Positions 2,999 to 5,038 of a stretch of 12,078 bases of DNA are shown here, in pieces. Made by a program: the position numbers and the translations under genes. The stretch's first letter is position 1. Every line of letters starts with the position of its first letter. The stretch lies in UHGV virus genome UHGV-0150633. One strand, 5' to 3'. The notes beneath the pieces are model-generated. The model saw only the letters and a list, made by a program, of their open reading frames with translations. It did not search any database and was not told the origin of the DNA. Source of the DNA: a virus.

Positions 2999-5038
2999 TT
3001 ATAACTGATACATCACTTTACCAGCCGGTCCTTTAATGCATTTGAATATCGCGTTTGTGCTTGGCACCGCGGCCCAATCAGTAGCTCCATTAGTTTCGAC
3101 AGAACCGGCTACGTACTTAACACCAGAATGATCACCACTAGACACCCGTACAATCAGGTCTCTGCCTAGTGGAGCACCATAAATGTTAGTAATAGCTACC
3201 GAAGAGCCGATTATATTATAATGAGTTGATGGATGAACTTTTGTTAAATCTACAATAGTGCTTTCTGTTAAGGTAATGAATCTTGCATCTCCACCGTCGT
3301 AACCATCAACCTTCGTTGGTGAATCCAGAAAAATATACACACGGTCATCGTCAGGGTATGAATTACCGTTAGCCTTCCCCTCTCCAAATAATAGCGCGCC
3401 TTCATTTCGTTTCCCACCGGAGTCAGACTCATAGAAACCAAAGGTACAGTTTGAAACACCGCCTTTGCCGACATAGATACCGTACAATTTTGTTAGGTCC
3501 TCGGCGGCTGAAATCCCTATCTCGCAATTACTTACATGTCCGTCGGTGATATGTACACATTCGCGGCTGGGAGACATTCGTATAAATTTACACCCCAATA
3601 CACTAACAGCTGTGCAATCCAGATACATAGCATCTACACTACCTTCTGGTGCCAGGAATATATCCCCAGAGAAGCTAATGCTGTTACCTCCAGAACCCGT
3701 CATAAAATACGGAACCTGGTTTCTTGGTACATCTAGTTTCGACGACAGGTAACCTACATCGGTCGGTATGAATGTATTTTCTGAAAATTGAATTCTATAG
3801 CTTGCACCAAGGTCAATGGGTGCGCTTCGGTAAAAAAATCTATCATCCAGTGAGCCGTTTACTGTACGGGCTACTTCGAAATGGCAATGATGGAACGCTA
3901 TGTTCCACGCATTAGTCATTTTAATAAAGTAAGGAGTACCCTCAAAATGACAGCCATTGAAATAGATATAGTTAGAGTCGTTAAGGAAGTGCACTGCAGG
4001 TTTATCTTGAGAACCGCTGAGCAAAAAAGTGCAGTTGTTCACGTATGTATCTTGAATATAGCCCACCTCCCACGCTTGATTTGGGAAGCGTTGGATATTT
4101 AAACCGGACATAATCCCTGTCCAACCTACATGGTTAGTATACAGACCCACGTCACAAGAGTCTTGCACACCCCATATTGCGAAGTCGCGCAATGTCATAC
4201 CGAATGAAAAACCTGTAGTGCTATTAATTGACAACGTTCTTCCGGGGTTTACTTTAGACAATATTACAGACCCACGAACAGGCGATTCCTCGTGACCTGT
4301 AGAGGCTATGTCACGCAAACCACCGCTGCCTTCGCCATATAAGCTAAGAGCATAATCCGCCACAATTTCTGTATTTACCACGTATTGGCCAGATGGCAGA
4401 AACACGCCTGCGTTAATAAATTTAGCAGTGTTAATCGCAGCTTGTATCGCAGCGTAATCTTGGGTTTGTGTTAATGCGGTAACAAATGGATAAACCATCT
4501 GAGCAGCACTTAATGTGCTGAACTTTTCGCTAAGAGGATGATCTAAACCATCTCCTACGGCGCCAAAATCTTTAACAGATAGTATATCGTCAAGCTTATG
4601 TTGCAATGTGCGCAATGTTGCATGCAAAGTGTTGTGTATGTATCCCATCTTGCTGGGAAAATTTCCAGAACCAACATCATCATATAATCTTGCTTCAAAC
4701 TGATCCGGATCATACTTCAGCACATTTGGGAATTTGAACTGCTGTGCACCATACGCATCATAAACAGCCATAGAATGGCCTTGCTCAGTTACGAATTTGG
4801 CAATCTGCCCGTTATATACCGGGTAACCAGCAGCATTAATGATGATTGGTTGCGATACAGGAACGTGAGAACCATCTTCGTTCTCCACATAAACCTGAAT
4901 CTGGTTTTCAGGATTTACAGGGTCAGCGTCAATTTTGCCGATATAAATCTTTCCATTAGCTACGGCTTTAAAAGAACGAGCCATAGTGAAGAGTTGCGAA
5001 GGCATACTCACTACAACATTGGGTGTAATGTCTGACAT
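2999..5038 (-). CDS. Tailspike protein: P22-family head-binding N-terminal domain plus right-handed beta-helix receptor-binding/depolymerase domain
   Basis: Track ORF 2999-5134. From the internal Met the sequence MSDITPNVVVSMPSQLFTMARSFKAVANGKIYIGKIDADPVNPENQIQVYVENEDGSHVPV...VLKYDPDQ closely matches, as I recall it, the head-binding domain of P22 gp9 and of the Sf6/HK620 tailspikes. Start therefore placed at ATG 5036-5038, which has AAGG about 11 nt upstream. Downstream is a DFGAVGDG motif (about residue 160), typical of pectate-lyase-like beta-helix glycanases, and a Gly/Asn/Ser-rich repetitive region. Confidence 0.9.
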   Translation of the reverse strand: MSDITPNVVVSMPSQLFTMARSFKAVANGKIYIGKIDADPVNPENQIQVYVENEDGSHVPVSQPIIINAAGYPVYNGQIAKFVTEQGHSMAVYDAYGAQQFKFPNVLKYDPDQFEARLYDDVGSGNFPSKMGYIHNTLHATLRTLQHKLDDILSVKDFGAVGDGLDHPLSEKFSTLSAAQMVYPFVTALTQTQDYAAIQAAINTAKFINAGVFLPSGQYVVNTEIVADYALSLYGEGSGGLRDIASTGHEESPVRGSVILSKVNPGRTLSINSTTGFSFGMTLRDFAIWGVQDSCDVGLYTNHVGWTGIMSGLNIQRFPNQAWEVGYIQDTYVNNCTFLLSGSQDKPAVHFLNDSNYIYFNGCHFEGTPYFIKMTNAWNIAFHHCHFEVARTVNGSLDDRFFYRSAPIDLGASYRIQFSENTFIPTDVGYLSSKLDVPRNQVPYFMTGSGGNSISFSGDIFLAPEGSVDAMYLDCTAVSVLGCKFIRMSPSRECVHITDGHVSNCEIGISAAEDLTKLYGIYVGKGGVSNCTFGFYESDSGGKRNEGALLFGEGKANGNSYPDDDRVYIFLDSPTKVDGYDGGDARFITLTESTIVDLTKVHPSTHYNIIGSSVAITNIYGAPLGRDLIVRVSSGDHSGVKYVAGSVETNGATDWAAVPSTNAIFKCIKGPAGKVMYQL

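Follow-up and report, generated by a model that had tools for sequence, protein, structure and literature searches.

A P22-family tailspike with a swapped, probably O114-directed receptor-binding module and a possible exported isoform in an Escherichia coli prophage remnant

The window analyzed here, a 12,078-nucleotide stretch of virus genome UHGV-0150633, carries a tailspike gene flanked by prophage genes (Table 1), and the questions that this locus raises are which surface glycan the receptor-binding module (RBD) of the tailspike recognizes, how that module came to sit on its present anchor, and what the gene might still do in its prophage. As first stated, the original prediction of a modular tailspike is textbook and adds one more uncharacterized RBD to those already known. 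The fuller explanation that we reach, and that as a whole we consider quite likely, is that of a Lederbergvirus tailspike with a swapped RBD directed at the O114 O-antigen, residing in a remnant prophage and possibly made as two isoforms. The practical use of the RBD would mainly be as a candidate O114-specific depolymerase or as a typing reagent for CS7/O114:H49 enterotoxigenic E. coli (ETEC).

Table 1. Features of the window, with the evidence for each (aa, residues of the 679-aa product)
Feature	Position	Strand	Evidence or detail
IntS-type integrase	14..1201	+	Pfam integrase domains
Putative phage-borne O-antigen polymerase (Wzy-like), 441 aa, linked to RBD	1617..2942	+	NCBI name, weak TIGR04370
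Hairpin between convergent wzy and tailspike genes	2952..2976	.	Fold energy
Tailspike ORF, canonical start	2999..5038	-	ATG 5038, stop codon 3001-2999; 679 aa
Receptor-binding module (RBD), aa 143-679	3002..4612	-	
Pair of CHFE motifs, stacked from one rung to the next, aa 363-366 and 385-388	3875..3952	-	Alignment, AF2 strand register
DFGAVGDG motif in N-terminal cap, aa 157-164	4547-4570	-	
Neck/linker, aa 114-142	4613..4699	-	AF2 secondary structure, blastp boundaries
Head-binding (tail-hub anchoring) domain, aa 1-113, with YDPDQ hinge at its end	4700..5038	-	Pfam PF09008, Sf6/P22 PDB matches
32 in-frame codons extending the N-terminus, MKRRTLLKSLLGLTSLLPVKFAASQNLQGKSI (possible long isoform, 711 aa)	5039..5134	-	
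gp16-like ejection protein	5324-7243	-	PF26808
gp20	7243-8625	-	Pfam
gp7	8638-9294	-	Pfam
gp14/DUF2824	9269-9751	-	Pfam
Needle with Sf6-type knob	9748-10560	-	Pfam

The tailspike gene and its modules

The original prediction gave the span of the gene correctly but overlooked that it lies on the minus strand; read on the plus strand, the same interval is riddled with stops. The minus-strand translation opens MSDITPNVVV and is identical over its whole length to WP_284093551.1, which bears the name "phage tailspike protein". The canonical start had likewise been placed correctly, whereas an in-frame extension to an ATG 96 nt further upstream, conserved as coding, had been missed. Judged by its sequence, the product is a Lederbergvirus (P22-family) tailspike with an intact ORF, and its gene closes the late operon, following the needle and ejection genes gp26/gp14/gp7/gp20/gp16 identified by Pfam, as expected for a P22-type tailspike. 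The hairpin beyond its stop codon (-15.7 kcal/mol, z = -4.35, with 0 of 200 shuffles folding equally well) looks like a bidirectional terminator.

Consistent with the P22/Sf6/HK620-type head-binding domain predicted over the first ~110 residues, aa 1-113 cover the full length of Pfam Head_binding PF09008 (E=2e-64, 215 bits against a cutoff of 24), and PDB sequence searches aligned aa 1-166 with Sf6 gp14 (E=9e-68) and aa 1-116 with P22 gp9 (E~1e-47), an HK620-type N-domain also being among the matches. In Foldseek, the N-domain is 86-88% identical to that of Sf6 and 65-71% identical to that of P22. The neck that follows has a helix predicted at aa 111-124 (AF2 secondary structure), and blastp alignments with RBDs carried on other anchor types start at aa 112-143.

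Within the RBD, an N-terminal cap is followed by a right-handed parallel beta-helix (aa ~215-560), and a beta-sandwich (aa ~569-679) forms the C-terminal part. The pectate-lyase-like beta-helix with a DFGAVGDG motif that had been proposed is borne out by the motif itself and by PF12708, which matches aa 192-386 above its gathering cutoff (E=2e-7, 31.3 bits; cutoff 27). The proposed lack of resemblance to the P22 endorhamnosidase also holds, as PDB searches with the single sequence and with the family profile gave no match to that domain (P22 residues ~125-666) past aa 116. Four acidic residues, D228, D330, E366, and E388, are invariant in a 70-sequence alignment, and E366, E388, and D330 are candidate catalytic carboxylates by sequence, though these choices are guesses because sequence similarity to solved tailspikes is confined to the cap (aa 144-260). 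The protein presumably assembles as a trimer.

Several lines of evidence support the predicted horizontal swap of the receptor module. Nucleotide similarity to other Lederbergvirus phages ends at the YDPDQ hinge, at about nt 339-354 of the gene. Set against its copy in E. coli O114:H49 strain 90-9280, the gene shows 37 nucleotide differences, of which 32 fall within the first 600 nt and only 5 in the remaining 1,440 nt (within the RBD); the adjacent wzy gene has 3 in 1,326 nt. The head-binding domain is ~8% diverged from that copy and the RBD, phage wzy, and integrase are at least 99.6% identical to it, which places a recombination junction at the domain boundary. Homologues of the RBD (46-82% identity) are found on P22-type, TSP1/gp66-type (PF18668), T7-type (PF03906), and longer unassigned N-termini, so that at least four types of anchor domain bear this family. 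From these sequence comparisons, the RBD, phage wzy, and integrase gene form a three-gene cassette, which was joined at the domain boundary, by recombination, to another backbone, one of the CurroJimenez/Huey type.

A linked putative O-antigen polymerase and the probable receptor

The specificity of the RBD is not already known from a near-identical characterized tailspike: none was found in the PDB (sequence and profile searches), in 50,697 phage records (DNA and tblastn), or in NCBIfam, and the homologues in phages are unstudied and at most 55% identical, with no receptor assigned to those of SS3/SS9 or FSL SP-076 in the literature searched. The original prediction was right on this point, and it overlooked an association with serogroup O114 that allows the specificity to be predicted. 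The RBD is present in only 4 of 5,426 complete E. coli genomes, and all four are among the nine that carry the O114 O-antigen cluster, the four carriers representing only about two lineages. By this association, the target of the RBD is probably the O114 O-antigen, the substrate probably being the polymer made by the chromosomal O114 Wzy. Papers on the association of tailspikes with O-serogroups do not cover O114.

The original account of the neighborhood also overlooked the phage wzy, which is confined to the same four of the 5,426 genomes as the RBD. This gene (GC 32-34%) encodes a membrane protein that scores under the cutoff for TIGR04370 (E=2.8e-8, 33.2 bits; cutoff 40), has no Pfam match, and shows no relationship to the O114 Wzy. 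All four carriers have a chromosomal O114 wzy that is frameshifted at T-tracts, by two independent events, and the phage gene may be essential for smooth LPS in these strains. Cassette carriers include 90-9280 and ETEC-2264, and the O114 strains TW10828, WS0115A, and the O114:H2 type strain have an intact wzy on the chromosome and lack the cassette. Given the linkage of RBD and phage wzy and the frameshifted chromosomal gene, the "O114" antigen of such ETEC may be polymerized by a prophage enzyme, which, if so, has consequences for serotyping and O-antigen vaccines. A review of E. coli O-antigens (PMC7685785) mentions a second wzy, located outside the O-antigen cluster, only as a possibility. 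Mechanistically, the RBD would bind and most likely hydrolyze the O-antigen and so bring the virion down to the outer membrane; the cassette would set host range, with the phage polymerase re-linking the O-units of the lysogen, as with epsilon15 and D3. The prophage tailspike need not cleave this converted O-antigen.

It is unlikely that the RBD acts on another glycan altogether, such as a capsule, colanic acid, or the polymer converted by the phage Wzy, with its co-occurrence with O114 reflecting prophage residence only. That view draws on the small number of independent host lineages behind the association (about two), on ~53% identical homologues in Salmonella phages, and on O114 strain AHB3, whose P22-like prophage, also at argW, bears an RBD of unrelated sequence; against it, temperate P22-like phages need to adsorb to the strain that they lysogenize, the RBD and an O-antigen polymerase gene are in tight linkage, and every carrier found in the genomes searched is O114. 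If the O114 O-antigen is taken as the substrate, the chemistry is most likely that of a hydrolase. A polysaccharide lyase or deacetylase, like LKA1 gp49 or G7C gp63.1, appears very improbable, since beta-elimination requires a uronic acid and the O114 repeat, as published, is neutral and contains none (PMC10609480), which excludes a lyase if O114 is the substrate. Moreover, similarity to LKA1 and phi297 is confined to the cap and Pfam detects no SGNH or esterase domain in the protein. Membership of the LKA1 gp49 type was rejected on the same grounds, the similarity covering aa 144-260 only and the likeness in fold being generic.

Whether the tailspike still has a function in the window is a separate matter. 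The end of the prophage adjoins argW in related genomes, and in the lineage of the window the head, hub, lysis, and replication genes have been deleted, making this prophage a non-viable E. coli remnant; in the four complete O114 genomes with the RBD, by comparison, the prophage is full-length. There is a real, if minority, chance that the tailspike here is a functionless passenger kept by the neighboring wzy as the selected cargo. All eight of the places inspected, among 17 contigs with the exact protein, are eroded remnants without head, hub, and lysis genes, and the chromosomal wzy of the complete carriers is frameshifted, so that smooth LPS may depend on the phage gene. However, the extent of erosion differs among these remnants and the ORF is intact and identical across them although they were independently eroded, most of the codons in which it differs from the 90-9280 copy are silent changes (28 synonymous, 7 nonsynonymous), and an exported long isoform, if real, could act without a virion.

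A conserved twin-arginine-like extension upstream of the canonical start

The 32 codons upstream of the canonical ATG fall into three diverged families and are open and in frame in 33 public contig matches (21 of 21 matches in IMG/VR and 12 of 13 in metagenomes), the thirteenth metagenome match being a chance match of the search pattern that runs into a stop after 20 codons. Family A has nine synonymous and no nonsynonymous differences (P~4e-6 under neutrality), and families B and C retain the frame, length, ATG, and RRxFFK motif at a pS of 0.61. The extension is under purifying selection, with a pN/pS close to that of the head-binding domain beside it. The canonical Met is kept in all three families, together with a Shine-Dalgarno-like AGG(A/T). 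Read by eye, the families carry the motifs KRRTLLK, NRRSFFK, and NRRLFFK (compare S/T-R-R-x-F-L-K) and candidate cleavage sites AAS, SLS, and SIS, with an h-region of 11-13 residues ending in a conserved Pro and a c-region with K/R, and in these respects the extension resembles a twin-arginine signal peptide.

Among sampled P22-type tailspike loci, only about 4% carry the extension. It is present in the plaque-forming O16 phages CurroJimenez, Huey, Dewey, and Louie. The leader pattern had no match in GTDB species-representative genomes, and a tblastn search with family B for an origin in another phage gene gave only one more tailspike, that of phage JEP4. Kapi1, a P22-like phage at argW, was considered as a carrier and rejected, having immI and an HNH gene upstream and lacking the extension. 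A promoter scan gave one 9/12 match upstream of ATG 5134, to which we assign no weight because the number of sites equals the shuffle expectation. In the literature searched we found no description of this leader, the only pairing of a tailspike with Tat being in the paper on bacterial WceF.

The most economical reading of these data suggests two isoforms, a cytoplasmic one for virions and one that would be exported. It is counter-intuitive that a protein assembled into virions within the cytoplasm should carry a signal peptide. The alternative is that the 32 codons are untranslated and conserved as a regulatory RNA or DNA element or through recent common ancestry, and there is no strong Shine-Dalgarno before ATG 5134, PGAP and Prodigal-type gene callers choose the canonical ATG, and the extension occurs in a small share of loci. 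We nevertheless regard this alternative as somewhat unlikely, as it does not readily account for the features retained between families B and C at such synonymous divergence, for the purely synonymous differences within family A and a pN/pS matching that of the head-binding domain, or for the early stop in the sole chance match of the pattern.

Returning to the two-isoform reading, we tentatively propose, by analogy with WceF and WcaM, that a subset of P22-like phages may make, alongside the cytoplasmic virion isoform, a longer one that is exported by Tat as a folded periplasmic depolymerase. If true, the exported form could trim nascent O-antigen, giving it a receptor-destroying or superinfection-exclusion function, or in remnants it might be a domesticated O-antigen-remodeling enzyme beside the phage Wzy; descent of WceF-type bacterial enzymes from such tailspikes would also be suggested. 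The conserved leader, present on tailspike genes of several Lederbergvirus lineages and apparently undescribed, makes the idea of an exported phage depolymerase directly testable and offers an evolutionary link with enzymes of the WceF type, and the O16 phages are tractable in the laboratory.

Comparison with known systems

In its overall plan, the tailspike matches those of P22 (gp9), Sf6 (gp14), HK620 (gp9), and CUS-3, with which it has in common the YDPDQ hinge, a locus after the ejection genes, and a beta-helix followed by a C-terminal domain. Pseudomonas phi297 gp27 (4RU5) and LKA1 gp49 (4RU4) differ in their anchors and in a C-terminal domain that is discoidin-like, and LKA1 gp49 cleaves a uronic-acid O-antigen as a lyase, a chemistry unavailable on O114. 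Uncharacterized homologues of the RBD belong to Escherichia phage PE007, Salmonella phages FSL SP-076/S5/SP154 (Gamaleyavirus-like), and SS3/SS9 (Kuttervirus), whose proteins share this RBD at 52-55% identity over aa ~112-679 but have other N-terminal anchors of 250-390 aa and other hosts.

The arrangement of this putative seroconversion cassette is like that of epsilon15 (Salmonella) and D3 (Pseudomonas), in which a tailspike or tail protein is likewise linked to a phage wzy near int/att, and D3 orf27 is 48% identical to the cap region of the RBD over ~95 aa. An inhibitor of the host polymerase (iap), as in the epsilon15/D3 type, is not among the genes identified here; the carriers have a frameshifted host wzy instead.

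For the extension, the nearest parallels are bacterial. Pantoea stewartii WceF (6TGF) has a Tat signal and joins a P22-like head domain and a neck to a trimeric, stewartan-cleaving beta-helix (PMC7949094); its head domain matches that of the tailspike described here at E=2e-9. E. coli WcaM (strain 90-9280) has an SRRTFLT-type signal at its start. Both WceF and WcaM are encoded by chromosomal exopolysaccharide-cluster genes and are not virion proteins, whereas the signal-like peptide found here precedes a gene that, in plaque-forming phages, also supplies the tailspike of the virion.

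A modular tailspike in a prophage remnant

Consistent with the original prediction, the tailspike begins with a close P22/Sf6-type head-binding domain: a Pfam search places PF09008 (Head_binding) end to end over residues 1-113 (E=2e-64), and a PDB sequence search matches residues 1-166 to Sf6 gp14 and residues 1-116 to P22 gp9. The same PDB search found no P22 similarity beyond residue 116, bearing out the view that the later part is unlike the P22 endorhamnosidase, and the proposed pectate-lyase-like beta-helix is supported by the DFGAVGDG motif (residues 157-164) and by PF12708 (pectate-lyase-like), above cutoff over residues 192-386. 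On these results the earlier description holds, subject to two qualifications: the coordinates of the gene at 2999-5038 stand, with the gene lying on the minus strand and its longest ORF beginning 96 nt upstream of the canonical start. Numerous stops interrupt the plus strand here; on the minus strand, a reading frame runs without interruption from ATG 5134, or from ATG 5038, to the stop codon at 3001-2999. Databases already list the protein, under a generic name.

Coordinates of the tailspike region and neighboring features in the window
Feature	Position	Strand	Description
Integrase gene (int)	14-1201	plus	IntS-type
int-phage wzy interval	1202-1616		415 nt, ~31% GC, non-coding
Promoter-like match	1339-1311	minus	TTGACA-17-GAGAAT
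O-antigen polymerase (NCBI name; phage wzy)	1617-2942	plus	441 aa, 32-34% GC
Hairpin	2952-2976		10 bp, GC-rich, -15.7 kcal/mol, z = -4.35, T-runs on both strands
Tailspike, canonical start	5038->2999	minus	679 aa, N-terminus MSDITPNVVVSMPSQLFTMARSFKAVANGK
Leader	5039-5134	minus	32 in-frame codons before canonical Met, MKRRTLLKSLLGLTSLLPVKFAASQNLQGKSI
Tail needle gene	9748-10560	minus	Sf6-type knob (PF16532)
Region beyond the needle gene	10560-12078		Ead/Ea22-like early gene on the opposite strand to the needle gene

The predicted tailspike structure (mean pLDDT 86.4, mostly >90 from residue ~150 on) comprises an N-terminal head-binding beta domain, a helix at residues 111-124 plus a helical cap, an extended series of short strands recurring every ~22 residues (residues ~215-560), and an all-beta C-terminal domain (residues ~569-679). 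Foldseek against the PDB recovered the P22 and Sf6 N-domains and, for the rest of the protein, only beta-helix tailspikes at 11-16% identity; sequence similarity to solved structures is limited to the neck and cap, the family profile included. In an alignment of 70 homologues, D228, D330, E366, and E388 are the invariant acidic residues of the receptor-binding domain (RBD, residues 143-679). E366 and E388 each lie within a CHFE motif, and the two motifs, 22 residues apart, terminate equivalent strands on consecutive rungs of the model. D330, E366, and E388 are candidate catalytic residues.

Phage matches by megablast against 50,697 phage records (Sf6, HK620, CUS-3, Sf101, CurroJimenez, and others) cover only gene nt 1-~350, at 81-94% identity. 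Full-length relatives of residues 120-679 found by tblastn in phage records, namely Escherichia phage PE007, the 72-kb Salmonella podoviruses FSL SP-076, S5, and SP154, and the Kuttervirus phages SS3 and SS9, are only 52-55% identical, with ECBP5 at 35%. Relatives at 46-82% identity in a 5.8-billion-protein collection bear PF09008, PF18668, PF03906, or long unassigned N-termini, and their homology begins at residues 112-143 of our tailspike. The end of the DNA match and the variety of N-termini both support the horizontal swap of the receptor-binding module proposed earlier; taken alone, the tailspike is an ordinary module exchange, a real finding that was correctly interpreted. No receptor assignment for any of these relatives was found in the literature examined.

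The prophage in the window is a defective remnant. Beyond the needle gene, which abuts the Ead/Ea22-like early gene, the gp10, gp4, capsid, portal, and terminase genes are absent, and relative to the complete prophage of E. coli O114:H49 strain 90-9280, ~27 kb is gone (hub, head, lysis, replication, immunity), with no immI region in the window. The exact 679-aa protein occurs on 17 public contigs, and all eight places inspected are argW remnants eroded from the far end to varying extent, with tailspike, wzy, and int intact in each. The needle has the Sf6-type knob and not the P22 gp26 tip; on related contigs its start is called 52 codons later (218 aa).

A recent domain-boundary exchange and a predicted O114 specificity

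The whole tailspike gene is present in only 4 of 5,426 complete E. coli genomes, at 98.1-98.2% identity. Of the 37 differences from 90-9280, one of these carriers, the first 300 nt hold 25 and the following 300 nt another 7, leaving only 5 in the last 1,440 nt, within the RBD; in the adjacent wzy-like gene, 3 of 1,326 positions are changed, none of them altering an amino acid. Upstream of 5039, resemblance to the 90-9280 prophage is lost, and the window there matches the isolated O16 phages CurroJimenez, Huey, Dewey, Louie, and APC_JM3.2 at 99.5% identity. Because divergence clusters at the 5' end and the upstream kin are O16 phages, the RBD-wzy-int block has a separate history from the head-binding/ejection backbone, to which it is joined at the hinge (YDPDQ).

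With the wzy-GT-wzx segment of the 90-9280 O-antigen cluster as query, matches were found in 9 of the 5,426 genomes, among them all four RBD carriers, an overlap with a chance probability of ~3e-12 if genomes are independent and ~3e-6 with two independent lineages. We therefore predict, from genome co-occurrence, O114 as the RBD specificity, a concrete addition to the known module exchange. The published O114 repeat, →3)-α-D-GlcNAc-(1→4)-β-D-Qui3N(N-acetyl-L-seryl)-(1→3)-β-D-Ribf-(1→4)-β-D-Gal-(1→ (PMC10609480), is neutral and without uronic acid, so if O114 is the substrate the tailspike would have to be a hydrolase, unlike LKA1 gp49, a lyase (PMC5701251).

A different P22-like prophage occupies argW in O114 strain AHB3 (NZ_OZ547164.1), which has an intact wzy. 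Its tailspike has only the head-binding domain in common with ours and may carry a second, unrelated O114-directed RBD; its tailspike-intS interval lacks a conversion gene.

A linked putative phage polymerase and decay of the host gene

The phage wzy is convergent with the tailspike gene, and the strong hairpin between them is probably a bidirectional terminator, though a simple terminator scan did not pick it up. The phage wzy product matches TIGR04370 weakly, below cutoff, and has no similarity to O114 Wzy. Phage wzy and RBD occur in exactly the same four genomes, in all of which a frameshift has turned the chromosomal O114 wzy into a pseudogene: a T7 run at nt ~409 has gained one T in 90-9280 and ETEC-2264, and LR882978 is 100% identical over that segment. 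The gene is intact in the O114 non-carriers TW10828, WS0115A, FDAARGOS_1287, and AHB3, giving frameshifts in 4/4 carriers versus 0/4 non-carriers through two distinct T-tract indels, among which homopolymer errors are possible. This linkage with host wzy decay, our second addition, resembles epsilon15/D3-type conversion, a likeness suggesting that the tailspike would cut the native linkage and the phage Wzy would build a resistant one. A second wzy outside the cluster appears only as a hypothesis in a review of E. coli O-antigens (PMC7685785).

The int-phage wzy interval holds the best promoter-like match of the scanned region. In other E. coli argW prophages (e.g. NZ_CP040397.1, NZ_CP189405.1, NZ_CM129847.1, NZ_LR778147.1), the intS-tailspike slot carries glycan-modifying genes, annotated as 'WzyE family oligosaccharide polymerase', acyltransferase, or DUF6056, so phage-borne polymerases may recur across E. 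coli.

A conserved twin-arginine-like leader

The third addition, which we judge the most interesting and testable, is the conserved Tat-like leader. Of 80 sampled IMG/VR loci that encode a P22-type head-binding domain, 77 have no in-frame extension or a short one (<=16 codons); of the three with at least 30 codons, two encode the window leader peptide and one a diverged form, MNRRSFFKSIASFVALTPLSSLSNMSNRIAH. Scans with a degenerate pattern (M-x-RR-x3-K followed, after 90-120 nt, by a QLFTMA motif) yielded 21 IMG/VR and 13 metagenome loci, and 33 of these 34 matches sort into three diverged families: A, with the motif KRRTLLK and 32 codons long, and B (NRRSFFK) and C (NRRLFFK), each 31 codons long. 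Every one of the 33 has an open frame that continues into a tailspike of 616-892 aa, and these tailspikes bear many different RBDs. The remaining match, with a stop after 20 codons, is a chance hit.

Family A shows 9 synonymous versus 0 nonsynonymous differences (P~4e-6); pS is ~0.23 and pN ~0.055 in families B and C, and 0.61 and 0.23 between B and C, ratios on par with the adjoining head-binding domain. These substitution patterns lead us to conclude that the leader is protein-coding and under purifying selection. Despite their differing codons, all three families retain the canonical ATG together with an AGG(A/T) lying 8-10 nt ahead of it; no strong Shine-Dalgarno sequence precedes the upstream ATG. 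Plaque-forming phages, O16 members of Lederbergvirus among them, also carry the leader: CurroJimenez/Bas106, Huey, Dewey, Louie, APC_JM3.2, and JEP4. In CurroJimenez/Bas106 the tailspike CDS is annotated from the upstream ATG. Kapi1 lacks the leader. Its motif suggests an export signal, and the tailspike may be made as two isoforms.

In the literature searched on tailspikes and twin-arginine export in this sense, only Pantoea WceF was found, a beta-helix protein with a P22-like head domain and a Tat signal; its head domain matches the window tailspike in the PDB sequence search. The N-terminus of E. coli WcaM likewise carries a signal similar to the leader, SRRTFLT.
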